Assembly: GCA_965279515.1 (NCBI GenBank)
Contig: CBDIID010000003.1
Coordinates: forward strand, 1,536,001 to 1,600,000
Direction of reading: 5' to 3'
DNA: 64,000 bases
Origin: Turneriella sp.
GTDB taxonomy: Bacteria > Spirochaetota > Leptospiria > Turneriellales > Turneriellaceae
Shown here: positions 58,451-63,622 of the stretch, piece after piece
Layout: every line of letters begins with the position of its first letter
Position numbering within the stretch: the first letter of the stretch is position 1
The notes under the pieces: generated by a model
Told to the model about the DNA's origin: nothing
Database searches by the model: none
Seen by the model: only the letters and a program-made list of their open reading frames with translations
Position numbers and translations under genes: made by a program

Positions 58451-58534
58451 TATCTTGAAACCGTTTTTGCCGGCTCAACAACACGATTATGTACGAAAGC
58501 CCGGTTTCCGATAATAGAATGTCCACTACCTGAT

Positions 58535-58888
58535 ATGAGCCTGAATCCCGAAAGACCCAAAGAACACAAACGGGAACACGGCCGCCTAAAAGTCACCGTC
58601 GACGGCCATTACCGCTTTGCCGGCGACGAAGACTGGATGCCTTGCAGCCTGATCGATATCAGCACCAGGGGGATGGCCCTTGTCGGAAAAAAATCGTTCT
58701 ATGTCGGCGATAAAATCGAAGTACGTTTCGGACTCGAAAAGCGCACTGTCTTGGTAGAGCTGGAGATCACGAACCTGATTGGCAAGAAGGCCGGCGGCAA
58801 AGTCACCGGCATGACCGACGCCGATCGCCTGGCCATTCAGGATATCCTCAACCGCGACCTGCTTTCCGGTAATACGCCGCTCTCTTAA
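58535..58888 (+). CDS. PilZ domain c-di-GMP receptor
   Basis: RxxxR (REHGR) and DxSxxG (DISTRG) motifs. Confidence 0.9.
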   Translation: MSLNPERPKEHKREHGRLKVTVDGHYRFAGDEDWMPCSLIDISTRGMALVGKKSFYVGDKIEVRFGLEKRTVLVELEITNLIGKKAGGKVTGMTDADRLAIQDILNRDLLSGNTPLS

Positions 58889-58904
58889 CCAATCGTGCCG
58901 GCTG

Positions 58905-61900
58905 TTATTCCCGCTCGCTCTGCAACCACTGGTAGAAAGCGGGCAACAGGAATAATGTCATCAATGTCGCTGTCACAAGGCCACCGAGCACCACAACCGC
59001 CAGCGGTTTTTGCACCTCGGCTCCGATGCCGCTGTTGAGCACCATCGGCAAAAAACCCAGGCTCGCCACAGAGGCTGTCATGAGCACGGGCCGCAGGCGA
59101 CCGAGTGCACCGGTATGCACTGCCTGCTTCACTGTGTGCCCCGCGGCAACCAGCTGGTTCAGATAGCTCACCTTTACAAGACCGTTCAGAATCGCAACGC
59201 CCGAAAGCGCGATGAAACCGACGGCGGCCGATACCGAGAAAGGTATGCCGGCGATGTATAAGGCGACCACGCCCCCCGTCCAGGCAAAGGGTATCGTCAT
59301 AAAAATCAGCAGGGTCTGCTTCACCGAGCGGAACGTGCGCCAGATAAGATAAAAGATTCCGAGCAGGATAACCGGCACGATAATCGCCAGGCGCAACCGG
59401 GCACGTTCGAGATTTTTGAACTGCCCCTGCCATTGCAACCGGTACCCCGGCGGCAGGCCGGTGTTCAGCTTGAGCTCTTGCTCAATTTTAGCCTTGGCTT
59501 CCTGAACAAACGAAAGCGTGTCGCGATTACCGAGGTAGATGGCAACGCCGGCATAGCGGTTGAGACCGCTGCGTGCAATGGCCGTCACGGTATCGCGCAC
59601 TGAAAAATCGACAAGATCGGCCAGGGGAATCGTGCCCCCCGCGGGCAATGCAATGGGGATTTTTTTGATCAGCGCAGTATTGGCGCGGCTGGCATCGTTC
59701 AATTTGACGACGATGGGAAAGCGCCAGTCCTCTTCATAATAGTTGCCGACGCTCCGCCCGACCATCGCCATCTGAAAACTTTCATTAACCTCGGCCATCG
59801 AGACGCCATAGAATGTAATGCGGTCATTCTTCATTCGGGCTTCGAGCACCGAACTGCGCCGCAGCGCCGTCAGCGAATCGAGCGTGACATCTCTCGCGCC
59901 GGGAATACTTTTCAGAATCTCCACCGCACGCTCCTGTAATTCAAAGAGCGTTTCCAGCTCTTTGCCATAGATGCGCAATGACACATCGGCGCGGCTGCCC
60001 TCGAGCATTTCGTTAAAACGCATCGCAATGGGTTGCGTCTGCTCGAGTTCCGATTCTTTCAGGTTCTCCGTTTTCGCGAGAACGGGCCTCAGATCGTTTT
60101 GTATGAGACCGAACAATTCATCCTGTGAAATCGTTTTACCTTTGGTATTCTTGCGCCAGGTAGCCTGGTCTTTTTTGAGGATAACAAACAGATCTGTGAG
60201 ATTCACTCCCATGGGATCGGTCGCCGCTTCGCTCGTGCCAATACGGCCGAAAACGGTTTCCACCTCGGGGTATGCGGCAATAATCTGCTCGGCCTTTTTC
60301 TCTCTCGCCAGCGATTCGCTGAGCGACATGCGCGCATCGTGCAAAAGGTTGAGCGTCATGTCGCCTTCGTTCAAAGCCGGCATAAAATCAGAACCCAGCT
60401 TCCGGAACAGATAACCGCAGAGCAGGAAAATCACAACGAGCGGCAGCACAAACTTTCGGATATGCCTGAGCGGAAAATTCAGCAACGGTTCATAAACGGC
60501 ATAGATTTTCTGAAAGACCGCCGTCTTATGGACTTCGCGTTTGGCCGCGACATAAACACCCAAAACCGGCATCAGCACAACGCCCACCAGTAAGGCGCCC
60601 GCGAGGGCAAAAAGCACGGTAATCGCCATGGGGTAATAGAGCTTACCTTCGACGCCCTCCAAAGTCAGAATGGGGAAATAGACTGCCATGATAATGATCA
60701 TGCCCGTCACCATGGGACGCATGATTTCGAGAGTCGCGGCACGCACAGCGCTTAGGCGCTCCGCAAGGTTCCGGGGTGGGTTGGCCTCCATCTTCGATAA
60801 CAGGTTCTCCAGCATGACGATGGAGCCGTCGACGATGAGGCCAAAATCGAGTGCGCCGAGACTCATGAGATTTGCCGAGATTCCGAACACCTTCATACCG
60901 ATGAGCGCAAACGCCATGGATATGGGAATAGCCAGCGCCACGAAGATCGCCGCGCGCAGATTGCCGAGAAAGAGTAACAGGATAACAACGACGATGCCGG
61001 CACCTTCCGCAAGATTTTTCACAACGGTCTTGACCGTCGCATTGACGAGAAAGCTGCGCGAATAGAGCACGCGCGTCTCGACATCTTCAGGCAGCGGCAC
61101 ATTCTTCAGCGCCGCCTCCGCGCTCTGCGCCACCGCGCGGCTGTTTTGCCCCGAAAGCATCAGCACCGTACCGAGTACTGTCTCATTGCCGCGGTAGGTC
61201 GCCGCGCCGATGCGCTGCGAATGGTATTCGCAGATTTCGGCGACCTGTTTCAGGCGTATCTTTGAGCCATCCCAGCTCATTTTCAGCGGCACTTCATTGA
61301 GCTGACTCAGGCTAAGGCCGCCGTTGGTGCGCACAATCAGCTGCTGCTGGCGGTTCTCGATATACCCACCGCCATAATTTTCACCGACCGTTCTCAGGCT
61401 TTGCCGTATCTGGTTGAAGGTGATGCCATACTGTTCGAGTTTTTCAGGACTGACCTCGATGTGCACCTGGCGTTCATAACCGCCTAATGAATCGATCTCT
61501 GCGGCGCCGGAAATATTCGACTTCAGGTAAGGCCTGATCACAAAATGCTGGATAGTCCGCAGGTAGACGAGTTGTTCGCGTTCGGTTTTTTTAGCCAGTG
61601 CACTGCCCGGCTTCGGCAAAACGGTATACATCAGCACTTCACCGAGCCCGGTGCTGATCGGCGCCATCCCGAGACTGACCCCCATCGGTAAATTTACGGC
61701 GCTCTGTATGATCTTTTCGGCGACCTGCTGCCGCGCCCAGTAAATATCGGTACCATCGGCAAAAATGATCACGGTCTGCGAGAGACCGAAACGTGAAAGC
61801 GAGCGCACCTCTTTCACATGGGGTAATCCCGCCATCTCGGTTTCGACAAAATAGGTAACGGATTTTTCGACCTGTTGCGGGTCGAGCCCCCCGGTCTTGG

Positions 61901-62051
61901 CATTGACAATCACCTGGACATTGGTGATGTCGGGCACCGCATCGACCGGTAAATTTAAAGCCACGAGCACAGCTGCGGTGAAGATCGTGAGCGCCGACAA
62001 AACGACTGTAAGCCGGTGAGCAAGTATGAAATCGATTAATTTACTGAACAT
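58905..62051 (-). CDS. czcA: CusA/CzcA family heavy-metal efflux RND permease
   Basis: LPVDAVPDITNVQV, RSLSRFGLS, ANLMSLGALDFGLIVDG, RLRPVLMTA, GAEVQKPLA. Confidence 0.95.
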   Translation of the reverse strand: MFSKLIDFILAHRLTVVLSALTIFTAAVLVALNLPVDAVPDITNVQVIVNAKTGGLDPQQVEKSVTYFVETEMAGLPHVKEVRSLSRFGLSQTVIIFADGTDIYWARQQVAEKIIQSAVNLPMGVSLGMAPISTGLGEVLMYTVLPKPGSALAKKTEREQLVYLRTIQHFVIRPYLKSNISGAAEIDSLGGYERQVHIEVSPEKLEQYGITFNQIRQSLRTVGENYGGGYIENRQQQLIVRTNGGLSLSQLNEVPLKMSWDGSKIRLKQVAEICEYHSQRIGAATYRGNETVLGTVLMLSGQNSRAVAQSAEAALKNVPLPEDVETRVLYSRSFLVNATVKTVVKNLAEGAGIVVVILLLFLGNLRAAIFVALAIPISMAFALIGMKVFGISANLMSLGALDFGLIVDGSIVMLENLLSKMEANPPRNLAERLSAVRAATLEIMRPMVTGMIIIMAVYFPILTLEGVEGKLYYPMAITVLFALAGALLVGVVLMPVLGVYVAAKREVHKTAVFQKIYAVYEPLLNFPLRHIRKFVLPLVVIFLLCGYLFRKLGSDFMPALNEGDMTLNLLHDARMSLSESLAREKKAEQIIAAYPEVETVFGRIGTSEAATDPMGVNLTDLFVILKKDQATWRKNTKGKTISQDELFGLIQNDLRPVLAKTENLKESELEQTQPIAMRFNEMLEGSRADVSLRIYGKELETLFELQERAVEILKSIPGARDVTLDSLTALRRSSVLEARMKNDRITFYGVSMAEVNESFQMAMVGRSVGNYYEEDWRFPIVVKLNDASRANTALIKKIPIALPAGGTIPLADLVDFSVRDTVTAIARSGLNRYAGVAIYLGNRDTLSFVQEAKAKIEQELKLNTGLPPGYRLQWQGQFKNLERARLRLAIIVPVILLGIFYLIWRTFRSVKQTLLIFMTIPFAWTGGVVALYIAGIPFSVSAAVGFIALSGVAILNGLVKVSYLNQLVAAGHTVKQAVHTGALGRLRPVLMTASVASLGFLPMVLNSGIGAEVQKPLAVVVLGGLVTATLMTLFLLPAFYQWLQSERE

Positions 62052-62124
62052 AACCCTCCTGTAACATAAACTCCAGGGATATTACTCCCAAACCCAATGG
62101 GCTGAATGTTCAGGCTACAGGAGG
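62044..62124 (-). promoter_or_regulatory. Anti-SD/SD RNA pairing between the RAPP codons and the czcA translation initiation region
   Basis: mRNA CCUCCUGUAGC (62124-62114) pairs with GUUACAGGAGG (62065-62055); CUGAACAU (62113-62106) pairs with AUGUUCAG (62051-62044). Confidence 0.75.
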
Positions 62125-62511
62125 TGCTCGCGGCGATGCAGGAACAAAGAATAAGGATAACGGGTCGTCGTCATGGAAATCGCGCAAGGCATATGCAGCG
62201 ACGATGATTTCGGGACCGGCAGTGATCGGTGTGACTACTGCAATGGAAACGGGTAAAGAGATAATGAGTATGGGCGCGGAATTTTTGCGGATGCCATTTT
62301 CGAATGTATGCTCAAACAGGGATTCTTCACCGCCATGCGCTTCATCGTGTGCATGCGGCAATTCTGCATGGCAGCGTGCGTTAATTTCATTTGTGCAGAC
62401 AGTCTCGTGGCTACCGTCGTGGTCGACGTGGACGGCAGAAACCGTAGACGCCGTCAGCAGCGTCAGGTAGAGCAAGTTGATGATGGCGAAGATGCGCATC
62501 CGCTGCCGCAT
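62110..62511 (-). CDS. Exported His/Cys-rich leader protein with C-terminal RAPP motif (CruR/CutF-like)
   Basis: Signal peptide from ATG 62511 or 62499; HVDHDGSH...C-x7-CH...HAHDEAH; ends SPRAPPVA. Confidence 0.75.
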   Translation of the reverse strand: MRQRMRIFAIINLLYLTLLTASTVSAVHVDHDGSHETVCTNEINARCHAELPHAHDEAHGGEESLFEHTFENGIRKNSAPILIISLPVSIAVVTPITAGPEIIVAAYALRDFHDDDPLSLFFVPASPRAPPVA

Positions 62512-62584
62512 CGCCCGGCAAGCGAGTTGGGCCGTCAAAAATAATACGGTTTCACTGGCTTGTTGAAAAAACCGTATGGGGCAC

Positions 62585-63622
62585 TTAAGCTCGAACAGCG
62601 AATAAATCGATGCCGTCGGCCTTTCCCCGCAAAACAACCGGTCCGAGATTCGTTACCTGAAAATCGGGCATTTGGGTCAGGGAGCGATGCAATGTTCCTG
62701 AAATAATCAAATTGTGACCGCATTCACGGCTGTACGCGGCAATGCGAGCCGTTGTATTCATGACATCGCCGATCAGTGCAATCTCGCGTTTCAAGACGCC
62801 GACTTCACCGATCACCAGCTCACCGATGTGAATGCCCGTGCGAAATTCCGGCACATATCCATAACGTTGCCGGTAAATTTCGGCGCGGTCCGCAAAAAAT
62901 TTTTCGATCAACAACGGCAGCCTTAGGCAATTGGAATTTTTTATACCGCGCGGCACAGGCCAACTGAGAATAATTTCATCGCCTACGTACTTATAAATTT
63001 CCGCTTCCGTCGCAATAATTGCCTCCGTCATATCGGAAAATGTCTCCGACATAAAATCCAGGTATCTTTGATCGCCGAGTTTTTCAGTGAGAGTTGTTGA
63101 GGATTTCAAATCCATAAATAGGACGATCCGTTTCTCATAGATCGGGTTATGGTAACGGCCCGTGATAAAATTCGCGAGCACTCTCGGCCCTAAAAGCCGG
63201 CTATTTTGCAGAAGAAAATTTAAAAGAAGTGAGAAAATCAGGGCAGCTCCCAGGGCCTGATAAAAATGCTGTCGGGCTACATCTGTGCCTGTCGGCAACA
63301 GCACAAAATGCTCGTACTCCATGATAAAACGCCCTAAGGCCCGACCAAACAAAATGAGAAAACTGTAGGCGATGGAGTTGAGCAGCAGCGTTCGCACAAA
63401 GCTGAGCCGCACGAAAAAACGCCGCAACAGAACGTCTGAAACAATCAGCTTATAAGTGCTAAGAAAACCTACTATCAAAAAACCATCCACAAGACCGTTC
63501 GCAAAACTGTGCCAGCTCATATACCCGTTGGAACTATAATTCTGCCACGAACTAATACCGGTAGCAAACAAGGCAGCTATACCCGTAAGTTTTGCCGCAA
63601 GAATGGCGTTGCGTTTGAGCAT
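62585..63622 (-). CDS. Membrane-bound class III adenylate/guanylate cyclase
   Basis: FMDLKSST, YKYVGDE, GIHIG, GDVMNTTARI, LRGK; 4 N-terminal TMs. Confidence 0.9.
   Translation of the reverse strand: MLKRNAILAAKLTGIAALFATGISSWQNYSSNGYMSWHSFANGLVDGFLIVGFLSTYKLIVSDVLLRRFFVRLSFVRTLLLNSIAYSFLILFGRALGRFIMEYEHFVLLPTGTDVARQHFYQALGAALIFSLLLNFLLQNSRLLGPRVLANFITGRYHNPIYEKRIVLFMDLKSSTTLTEKLGDQRYLDFMSETFSDMTEAIIATEAEIYKYVGDEIILSWPVPRGIKNSNCLRLPLLIEKFFADRAEIYRQRYGYVPEFRTGIHIGELVIGEVGVLKREIALIGDVMNTTARIAAYSRECGHNLIISGTLHRSLTQMPDFQVTNLGPVVLRGKADGIDLFAVRA

Follow-up and report, generated by a model that had tools for sequence, protein, structure and literature searches.

The window analysed here, a stretch of 64,000 nucleotides of Turneriella sp. 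DNA, carries on its minus strand a short open reading frame, referred to as the leader, which ends 58 nt upstream of the start codon (ATG, 62051-62049) of czcA (Table 1). The frame can also be opened at an upstream ATG at 62511, which gives 133 instead of 129 residues, and it is closed by a TGA at 62112-62110. In the numbering of the 129-residue form the protein contains eight His (24, 27, 31, 44, 49, 51, 55 and 64) and two Cys (35 and 43, C-x7-C), and it terminates in PRAPPVA-stop, with RAPP at residues 124-127 (62130-62119) followed by Val, Ala and the stop codon. The initial annotation had described an ORF of 129-133 codons with a signal peptide, a His cluster, C-x7-C, this C-terminus and a distance of 58 nt to czcA, all of which is correct, the His count being eight.

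Table 1. Positions of the leader, the hairpin and the pump gene in the window (columns: feature, position, strand, remarks)
czcA, CusA/CzcA-family heavy-metal RND pump, 1048 aa	58905..62051	minus	TIGR00914, 1017 bits vs cut-off 701
Whole hairpin	62046..62129	minus	MFE and centroid structures; structure unchanged in longer context
czcA SD arm GUUACAGGAGG	62055..62065	minus	pairs with anti-SD arm
Leader ORF, 129 aa + stop	62110..62499	minus	homologues begin at the position of ATG 62499 (MR-x-F/A)
Anti-SD arm CCUCCUGUAGC, Pro-Pro-Val-Ala codons	62114..62124	minus	pairs with czcA SD
RAPP codons CGA GCA CCT CCT	62119..62130	minus	invariant in 25/25; rare codons in the window
Hydrophobic spacer segment, variable sequence, residues 75-106	62182..62277	minus	hydropathy of 28 sequences and AF2
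His/Cys/acidic conserved segment, residues 24-67	62299..62430	minus	alignments A1, A2
Signal-peptide-like N-terminus, residues 1-22	62434..62499	minus	MR, hydrophobic core, V-S-A ahead of conserved VHVDH
Promoter-like site TTTTCA-17-TATTAT, just 5' of leader ORF	62541..62569	minus	consensus match

By inspection of the sequence a hydrophobic core of 15 residues was identified at the N-terminus of the leader, the mean Kyte-Doolittle hydropathy of the N-terminus across the leader family is ∼1.7, and AF2 placed a helix at residues 2-21 with a pLDDT >90. As judged from sequence and model, the N-terminus is signal-peptide-like, in line with the signal sequence or transmembrane segment that is a criterion for RAPP arrest peptides. 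The segment that follows is made up of the motifs VH-x-DH-x-GSH, C-x7-C-H, PH-x-H and H-x-GEESLFEH-x-FE. Between this segment and RAPP the sequence is variable and hydrophobic: averaged over the 28 sequences, hydropathy reached ∼1.1-1.2 (Kyte-Doolittle, window 15) at -42 to -33 residues from the RAPP Arg, and AF2 predicted with low confidence helices at 75-93 and 96-106. The AF2 model, calculated from an alignment of 25 sequences, had a mean pLDDT of 65 and a pTM of 0.36 and was confident for the signal helix only; this is what one expects if the leader is a sensor peptide and not a folded protein. In the region 58500-63000 three promoter consensus matches were found where 3.0 are expected from shuffled sequences, and therefore the promoter-like site is suggestive by its position alone. 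A scan of 61800-62800 against Rfam (E up to 1) matched no family.

The best solved relative of the pump is ZneA (541 bits), above CusA (495 bits). Its TM4 motif DFG-x3-DG-x5-EN (DFGLIVDGSIVMLEN) aligns without gaps to DFGIIVDGAIVVMEN of ZneA, whereas the alignment with CusA needs a gap and CusA has neither DFG nor DG. A pump of the ZneA/CzcA type suggests a divalent cation as the likely metal. The gene is flanked by a PilZ gene and an adenylate-cyclase gene; neither an adaptor nor an outer-membrane-factor gene was found beside it, with no adaptor match nearby, and the locus has no two-component regulator of its own. No ORF with a C-terminal RAPP was present at L023 and L024, which are further czc loci of this genome. 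In the same organism a second RAPP leader, unrelated to this one, apparently precedes the inorganic-carbon transporter DabAB.

Clear homologues of the leader were found in 11 of the 13 other genomes of the genus. A word-index search with the single leader protein returned only one relative, and a profile search among 1.84 billion proteins returned 16 representative clusters (E up to 0.001). In total 28 sequences were examined, 25 of which are distinct in alignment A2. RAPP is invariant in all 25 and lies 2-6 residues before the stop codon in 28/28, in agreement with the ApdA/ApdP/CruR class, for which RAPP or RGPP close to the C-terminus is a criterion; its R, A, P and P make up four of the six columns that are invariant in A2. 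In the His/Cys segment H24 and E63 are invariant, and D26, C35, S60 and F66 are conserved to at least 90%. The conserved Cys pair is flanked by His; 7 residues lie between the two Cys in the window protein and 7-8 in close relatives. Within the C-terminal half only RAPP and its spacing are conserved: a distance of 54-59 residues separates the RAPP Arg from the end of EESLFEH in 27 of the 28 sequences, the regular expression having matched no motif in the remaining one. No two of the 12 loci share the 12-nt string that encodes RAPP, and thus selection acts on the peptide. The expectation of the initial annotation that RAPP is conserved upstream of czcA in relatives was therefore borne out, in a C-terminal half that otherwise diverges. 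In all 12 loci the leader is co-oriented with an efflux gene 33-86 nt downstream, which is czcA in ten; in the other two OEP and then czcA follow, in one case with a P-type ATPase gene behind them.

In the window, CCUCCUGUAGC and GUUACAGGAGG pair over 11 positions including one G-U, as the initial annotation had stated and as can be read directly from the sequence. The outer helix of the hairpin joins the R-A-P-P-V-A codons to the SD and part of the czcA start-codon region and encloses two small stem-loops, so that the 58-nt intergenic region is almost fully base-paired. This hairpin is stronger than chance. The fold of 62140-62030, suggested as a check in the initial annotation, had a minimum free energy of -39.1 kcal/mol (z = -3.68) that none of 200 dinucleotide shuffles equalled, and the SD core had an unpaired probability of 0.00 compared with 0.20 ± 0.12 in shuffles, 2/200 of which were equally low. 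Among 355 strong-SD genes of the same genome, czcA had the lowest SD accessibility (0.002; median 0.37). Its SD-to-AUG spacer is short, with 3 nt after GGAGG. The codons CCT-CCT-GTA each account for 11% of their families in the long ORFs of the window, a joint probability of 0.0014. When a stalled ribosome was modelled, SD accessibility in the window rose from 0.00 to 0.21, which is only about the mean of the shuffles.

The initial annotation had also named conservation of this specific pairing in homologous loci as a check, and here its proposal found no support. SD occlusion fell below that of shuffled controls in only 2/12 loci; in the other ten, 27 to 185 of 200 dinucleotide shuffles were equally low, and a longer context together with a different SD window yielded another set of significant loci (L001, L005 and L009). 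The position of the SD partner relative to RAPP differs among loci. At least 85% of the SD pairing probability lies inside the modelled ribosome footprint in 7/12 loci, but the partner is mostly outside it in L002, L003 and L006 (fractions 0.00-0.13) and partly inside in L008 (0.46) and L012 (0.42). The intergenic regions are too divergent in length and sequence to be aligned across loci. Some SD pairing is automatic, because Pro codons are inherently complementary to the Shine-Dalgarno sequence. In addition, each ribosome that translates the leader melts the helix and reaches the stop two codons further on, and plain translational coupling would therefore work without arrest.

The closest described system is CutF, encoded in cutFOG of Rhodobacter capsulatus (PMC9973294; bioRxiv 10.1101/2025.02.05.636593). 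CutF, as described there, is a small Sec-exported protein that combines a metal motif on the periplasmic side with a proline motif for stalling at the C-terminus. A stem-loop in the short intergenic region behind it shields the SD of the next gene, and CutF acts in cis on a detoxification gene that metal is expected to induce. It differs in that it has CxxxC and PPP, senses Cu and controls a multicopper oxidase, whereas the leader has His-rich motifs with C-x7-C and a strict RAPP, precedes a ZneA/CzcA-type RND pump and uses the arrest codons themselves as anti-SD arm. CruR of Bordetella pertussis, a DUF2946 protein, is reported to share RAPP near the C-terminus (three residues), a conserved spacing between metal motif and RAPP, and a position as uORF at the head of a metal-homeostasis operon (PMC9426467). 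According to the same report, CruR has CXXC, a 45-residue spacing, a 162-nt intergenic region and Rho-dependent termination; Cu relieves its arrest, its target is an importer and its activity is reportedly independent of the signal sequence. The leader has neither CXXC nor CxxxC, since its Cys are 7 residues apart. It does have a conserved distance between metal motif and stalling motif, as is found in the DUF2946 CruR/CutF family, although the value differs from the 45 of CruR. With Pfam DUF2946 (PF11162) the window leader scored 10.6 bits (E = 0.99, C-terminal 37 residues only; gathering threshold 23.7), and none of the 25 family members reached the threshold, one scoring E = 1.5.

The initial annotation had considered a leader of this type in front of an efflux RND gene to be undescribed, a claim that has to be withdrawn. 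In mBio 2023 (PMC9973294), CutF-like proteins whose motifs consist of Cys, of His or of both are reported ahead of OEP, CusA/CzcA and CusB, with Spirochaetota scarcely represented; in three small text supplements of that paper Turneriella, Spirochaet and Leptospir do not occur. In the source data of an EMBO J 2025 study (PMC12992588), CusA/CzcA is a gene class enriched downstream of RAPP uORFs, with 50 RAPP versus 7 AAPP uORFs before CusA/CzcA, and one listed protein is identical in sequence to the relative at L003. The words 'efflux' and 'czc' have no occurrence in its main text. Among the 31 rows compared, of at least 33 CusA rows in this uORF list, the CusA/CzcA-linked RAPP uORFs resemble the leader: they encode ∼100-145 residues, begin with a hydrophobic stretch and contain a His cluster together with Cys; 2-5 residues separate RAPP from the stop, and the CusA/CzcA gene follows within roughly 60-350 nt. 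They differ in that most rows listed have a PHHHH-type motif and no detectable sequence similarity to the leader family. Some are named DUF6769 family protein in the source data; for the leader family no DUF6769 match was obtained with Pfam (E up to 10, 25 members) or NCBIfam (P0001 and P0002), libraries that may not include this model. It is concluded that leaders of this kind had been catalogued before and that the one studied here probably turns on the pump through the stalling of its own ribosome.

The reading that we favour, and consider reasonably likely, is that of a regulatory nascent peptide which is exported by Sec, acts in cis and belongs with CutF and CruR, and in which a metal-sensing arrest would induce the pump. 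The signal peptide would bring the nascent chain to the translocon. We infer that in this organism, too, ribosomes would pause at RAPP, with its two Pro codons in the P and A sites, respectively; in CruR the third and fourth RAPP codons are reported to occupy these sites. At this moment the His/Cys/acidic segment, which ends 54-59 residues upstream, would be newly exposed on the periplasmic side and the hydrophobic spacer would be at or in the translocon, and RAPP would slow peptide-bond formation. The stalled ribosome would cover the CCUCCUGUAGC arm, which is otherwise paired with the czcA SD and part of the start region, and therefore a second ribosome could initiate on czcA. Metal bound to the exposed segment may lengthen the arrest, as is the case for Cu and CutF, and the pump would be induced; possibly the metal keeps Cys35 and Cys43 from forming a disulfide, or prevents folding or pulling of the chain. 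That the arrest codons are the anti-SD is supported for the window and agrees with the published CutF mechanism. The switch proposed in the initial annotation is thus supported as far as the invariance of RAPP, its 12 codon strings, the czc-type operon in 12/12 loci and the identity of arrest codons and anti-SD in the window are concerned, but not in the conservation of the SD pairing or in its novelty.

A mechanism as in CruR, in which arrest at RAPP shields the transcript from Rho and release leads to termination before or inside czcA, would make regulation a matter of transcriptional polarity and the hairpin secondary. CruR is the best-studied RAPP metal leader and is described as acting in this way, and an untranslated czcA 5' region would be exposed to Rho in any case. 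Nevertheless this explanation appears unlikely, with an intergenic region of only 58 almost fully paired nucleotides compared with 162 in CruR, with the most extreme SD occlusion of the 355 genes, and with an exporter that should be switched on by metal, the opposite of CruR. It is considered quite improbable that the leader yields a stable metal-binding protein, periplasmic or anchored in the membrane, as a CzcI- or CusF-like pump accessory for which RAPP and hairpin serve coupling or stoichiometry and not sensing. The conserved N-terminal His/Cys/acidic segment and a spacer hydrophobic enough for an anchor would fit such a protein, and CzcI-like proteins are described in front of czcCBA in Cupriavidus. 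CzcI of Cupriavidus metallidurans, grouped with CutF-like proteins in PMC9973294, is likewise a small exported protein whose gene immediately precedes a czc RND operon, and it is a proposed metal-sensing regulator; compared by description only, it differs in reportedly having no C-terminal proline motif. However, the accessory role is at odds with the diverged C-terminal half and the low AF2 confidence of the leader, and it is hard to see what purpose an invariant arrest motif, kept at a constant distance, would serve in a mature chaperone.

SecM, ApdA and ApdP resemble the leader in that their C-terminal core is RAGP or RAPP, an export signal is present at the N-terminus and a downstream SD is unmasked, but they are protein-export monitors that control secA or secDF and are without a metal-ligand motif. 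That the leader likewise monitors Sec/YidC export or insertion capacity, with an incidental link to czcA, is very improbable: the leader does have the architecture described for localisation monitors, with a signal peptide, RAPP and, ∼25-48 residues ahead of RAPP, a hydrophobic segment, but its conserved residues are typical metal ligands and in 12/12 loci metal-efflux genes, and never sec or yidC, lie downstream.

Going beyond the favoured nascent-peptide reading, a joint reading can tentatively be offered in which the leader is a non-copper transmembrane nascent-chain sensor for a divalent cation (e.g., Zn, Co or Cd) whose RAPP codons double as anti-Shine-Dalgarno of an orphan CzcA/ZneA-type pump. 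The hydrophobic spacer, kept at a fixed distance, might then be a force-generating element, metal on the just-exported His/Cys segment might counteract the force, and the second RAPP leader before DabAB would belong to the same picture.

To our knowledge, the only metal leaders with RAPP or a proline motif studied experimentally so far are CruR and CutF, both for copper and both from Proteobacteria, and no experimental work on RAPP leaders of RND pumps was found in the literature searched. Compared with these two, the locus offers a new setting, with a divalent-cation-type pump and a different phylum, and a compact test case in which a single leader, a single hairpin and a single pump gene occur without a two-component regulator nearby. 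As the arrest codons are at the same time the anti-SD nucleotides, effects at the level of the peptide and of the RNA are separable by synonymous and compensatory mutations. If true, the RAPP leader of DabAB would take control by arrest peptides beyond metals and protein export. If confirmed, the leader of czcA would open no new category, but would support the published suggestion that metal sensing by nascent chains is a general route to the control of heavy-metal efflux.

The leader open reading frame, its motifs, its spacing and its pairing were found in the minus strand at 62511-62044 as the initial annotation had described them, and the leader observation is real and well supported. In the numbering of the 129-aa form, the N-terminus consists of MR, a hydrophobic core and then V-S-A, followed by a segment with His at positions 24, 27, 31, 44, 49, 51, 55 and 64, in which Cys35 and Cys43 form a C-x7-C motif. 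The AF2 model of the leader was confident for the signal helix only, which is compatible with a predicted sensor peptide. No obvious Shine-Dalgarno (SD) sequence was seen in the 25 nt before the start of any of the 12 leader ORFs (window 62499-62524, minus strand, and the equivalents in L002-L012), and the downstream efflux genes of the same loci all have a strong SD.

Coordinates of the leader, czcA and neighboring features, and of a second RAPP-ending ORF
Feature	Position	Strand	Remark
Leader ORF, stop TGA	window 62112-62110	minus	from the window sequence
Leader ORF, upstream ATG	window 62511	minus	gives 133 aa
Leader ORF, second ATG	window 62499	minus	gives 129 aa; start position in all relatives
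RAPP codons CGA GCA CCT CCT	window 62130-62119	minus	residues 124-127, then Val-Ala-stop
czcA ATG	window 62051	minus	58 nt past leader stop
PilZ-domain gene	window 58535-58888	plus	convergent with and downstream of czcA
Adenylate/guanylate cyclase-domain membrane protein gene	window 62585-63622	minus	upstream of leader
Second RAPP ORF, ~129 aa	G000:C3:1218466-1218912 = L025:4970-5356, also L026	minus	hydrophobic N-terminus, ends NSRAPPAL-stop

The leader is a rare protein: one relative emerged from 5.8 billion proteins in a word-index search, and 16 at E up to 0.001 from 1.84 billion representatives in a profile search. Whole-genome searches of 13 other genomes of the genus yielded matches in 12 (E up to 10), of which 11 are clear (E up to 1.5e-13), with a second copy in one genome; among 27 further genomes outside the genus no match was convincing. 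Public contigs matching the leader are titled as Turneriella, Leptospiraceae or Spirochaetota MAGs. Six columns, H24, E63, R124, A125, P126 and P127, are invariant when 25 distinct sequences are aligned, and the region from residue 70 to RAPP is otherwise unconserved. The distance from the end of EESLFEH to the Arg of RAPP is 54-59 residues in 27 of 28 sequences, the remaining one giving no regex match, and a hydrophobic stretch of varying sequence is kept ~25-48 residues before this Arg. RAPP lies 2-6 residues before the stop in all 28 sequences. Since RAPP is written as 12 different 12-nt strings in the 12 loci, the conservation is of the peptide and not of the RNA. The leader directly precedes czcA in 10 of the 12 loci; in the other two it is followed by OEP and then the RND pump (L008/L017, where L017 ends within the pump gene), or by OEP, CzcA and then a P-type ATPase (L012/L021).

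The czcA product scored 1017 bits on TIGR00914 (CusA/CzcA; cut-off 701). Of the solved relatives, ZneA scores best (541 bits), with CusA behind at 495 bits, and the TM4 motif of the czcA product, DFGLIVDGSIVMLEN, matches ZneA residue for residue, whereas over the same motif CusA aligns only if gapped, with DFG and DG missing. At what we take to be the positions of the CusA methionine triad, one of three residues is Met. Because of the ZneA resemblance, the TM4 motif and the triad positions, the pump is by analogy of the divalent-cation kind. Four pumps in the genome exceed the TIGR00914 cut-off, and a RAPP leader was found at the czcA of the window and at none of the other three. No adaptor (MFP) or outer-membrane-factor gene adjoins the leader-linked czcA in the flanks of window 58905-62051 (minus strand) or in locus L019; the closest MFP-family match in the genome is ~100 kb off, and no adaptor was recognizable inside the L021 operon. 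At another czc locus of this genome (L024, G000:C3:2254725-2261720, minus strand), a single 2389-aa open frame contains two full-length matches to CusA/CzcA, at 831 bits each; it may be a tandem fused RND pump or else two genes without an intervening stop, and an adaptor-family match lies directly upstream.

Cyclic-nucleotide signalling genes stand on either side of the leader-czcA unit, and a cNMP-binding EAL protein is encoded upstream of leader-czcA at L014:1953-3149; this may be coincidence. Just past the cyclase stop (window 62530-62585, minus strand), an inverted repeat, ATACGGTTT ... AAACCGTAT, read from the sequence and absent from the output of the region scan, is followed by a T-run. 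It overlaps a promoter-like TTTTCA-17-TATTAT. The repeat may be the terminator of the cyclase gene, and leader-czcA would then be its own transcription unit.

In the window, CCUCCUGUAGC (62124-62114) pairs with GUUACAGGAGG (62065-62055), one G-U included. This pairing, proposed initially, was borne out by the predicted fold of 62140-62030 (-39.1 kcal/mol, z = -3.68; 0/200 dinucleotide shuffles as stable), in which the outer helix also draws in the codons for Arg and Ala and some of the start region. For the SD core, a 127-nt context gave an unpaired probability of 0.00, compared with 0.20 ± 0.12 when the upstream part was dinucleotide-shuffled, a value reached by 2/200 shuffles. When 355 frames of the same genome, each 250 aa or longer and with its ATG preceded by a strong SD, were compared, the czcA SD was the least accessible (0.002; median 0.37, interquartile range 0.22-0.52), and its total MFE was ordinary (64/355 as low). 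In 29 long ORFs of the window, the codons for perfect pairing, CCT, CCT and GTA, each account for ~11% of their synonymous codon family, giving a joint probability of 0.0014, and CGA is the rarest Arg codon (3.6%).

Across the relatives RAPP was kept in 28/28 sequences. The SD pairing was only partly conserved: occlusion exceeded that of shuffles in only two of 12 loci, the window locus L001 (2/200) and L002 (0/200), and in the other ten 27 to 185 of 200 shuffles were as low in SD accessibility. With more context and a cruder definition of the SD window, L001, L005 and L009 were picked instead. In the MFE structures of most loci the SD partner is a C/U-rich stretch at the leader 3' end; counted from the P-site codon, its position varies (about -20 to -12, 0 to +10, or +9 to +22; 0 to +10 in the window). 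When the footprint was modelled as -14 to +15 about the first Pro codon, it contained 85% or more of the SD pairing probability in 7/12 loci; the fraction was 0.46 in L008, 0.42 in L012 and 0.00-0.13 in L002, L003 and L006. The pairing is partly automatic, because Pro codons are inherently SD-complementary and CCT makes up 13 of the 24 that the 12 RAPP motifs contain. The intergenic regions of the 12 loci could not be aligned with one another.

The initial interpretation, that a ribosome paused on RAPP frees czcA translation and that metal binding sets the pause, is probably right in outline, and by analogy the published arrest-leader models fit the czcA leader. A spacing of 54-59 residues is about the length of the exit tunnel plus translocon, and the ligand-rich segment would thus just be exposed as the ribosome reaches RAPP. 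Toeprinting, with CruR, is reported in PMC12992588 to place, in arresting RAPP peptides, codons three and four of the motif in the P and A sites. A ribosome arrested at RAP/P would cover the entire anti-SD arm in the window. Because czcA encodes an exporter, the arrest should be stabilized by metal, as in CutF; in contrast, in CruR copper relieves arrest and Rho then terminates (PMC9426467).

A second, unrelated RAPP-ending ORF that looks exported lies in the same genome ~102-105 nt upstream of DabA (PF10070, 687 bits), which is accompanied by a DabB-like Proton_antipo_M gene. The ORF encodes Pro-Pro as CCTCCT, and TGAGGAGGAAG is the SD region of DabA. Homologs were found in 3/12 other same-genus genomes searched, ending in TRAPPAL, SRGPPSL and PRAPPAL. 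A possible role for this ORF is that of arrest-peptide leader to an inorganic-carbon transporter; DabA is absent among the rows listed of the PMC12992588 uORF list.

Membership of the czcA leader in Pfam DUF2946 was rejected (10.6 bits vs a threshold of 23.7, matching over the RAPP end only); the threshold was reached by 0/25 family members, and the czcA leader family also lacks CXXC. A leader of this kind had initially been noted as not known to be described, but the locus belongs to a kind already published. In PMC9973294, CutF-like proteins, whose motifs may be Cys, His or mixed, most often precede OEP, ACR_tran (CusA/CzcA/SilA) and CusB genes, and are scarce yet existing in Spirochaetota. 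The rows listed of the PMC12992588 uORF list include at least about 30 leaders that are His-rich and 99-144 aa long, and also a row identical in sequence to the L003 leader. The source data count 50 RAPP vs 7 AAPP uORFs before CusA/CzcA and 620 vs 148 before RND adaptor subunits; neither efflux nor czc appears in the main text. The literature searched contained no experimental study of a leader of this type with an RND pump. The present analysis adds the definition of the family, its fixed spacing and hydrophobic spacer, how exceptionally the czcA SD is occluded in this genome, and the negative family-wide result for SD pairing.
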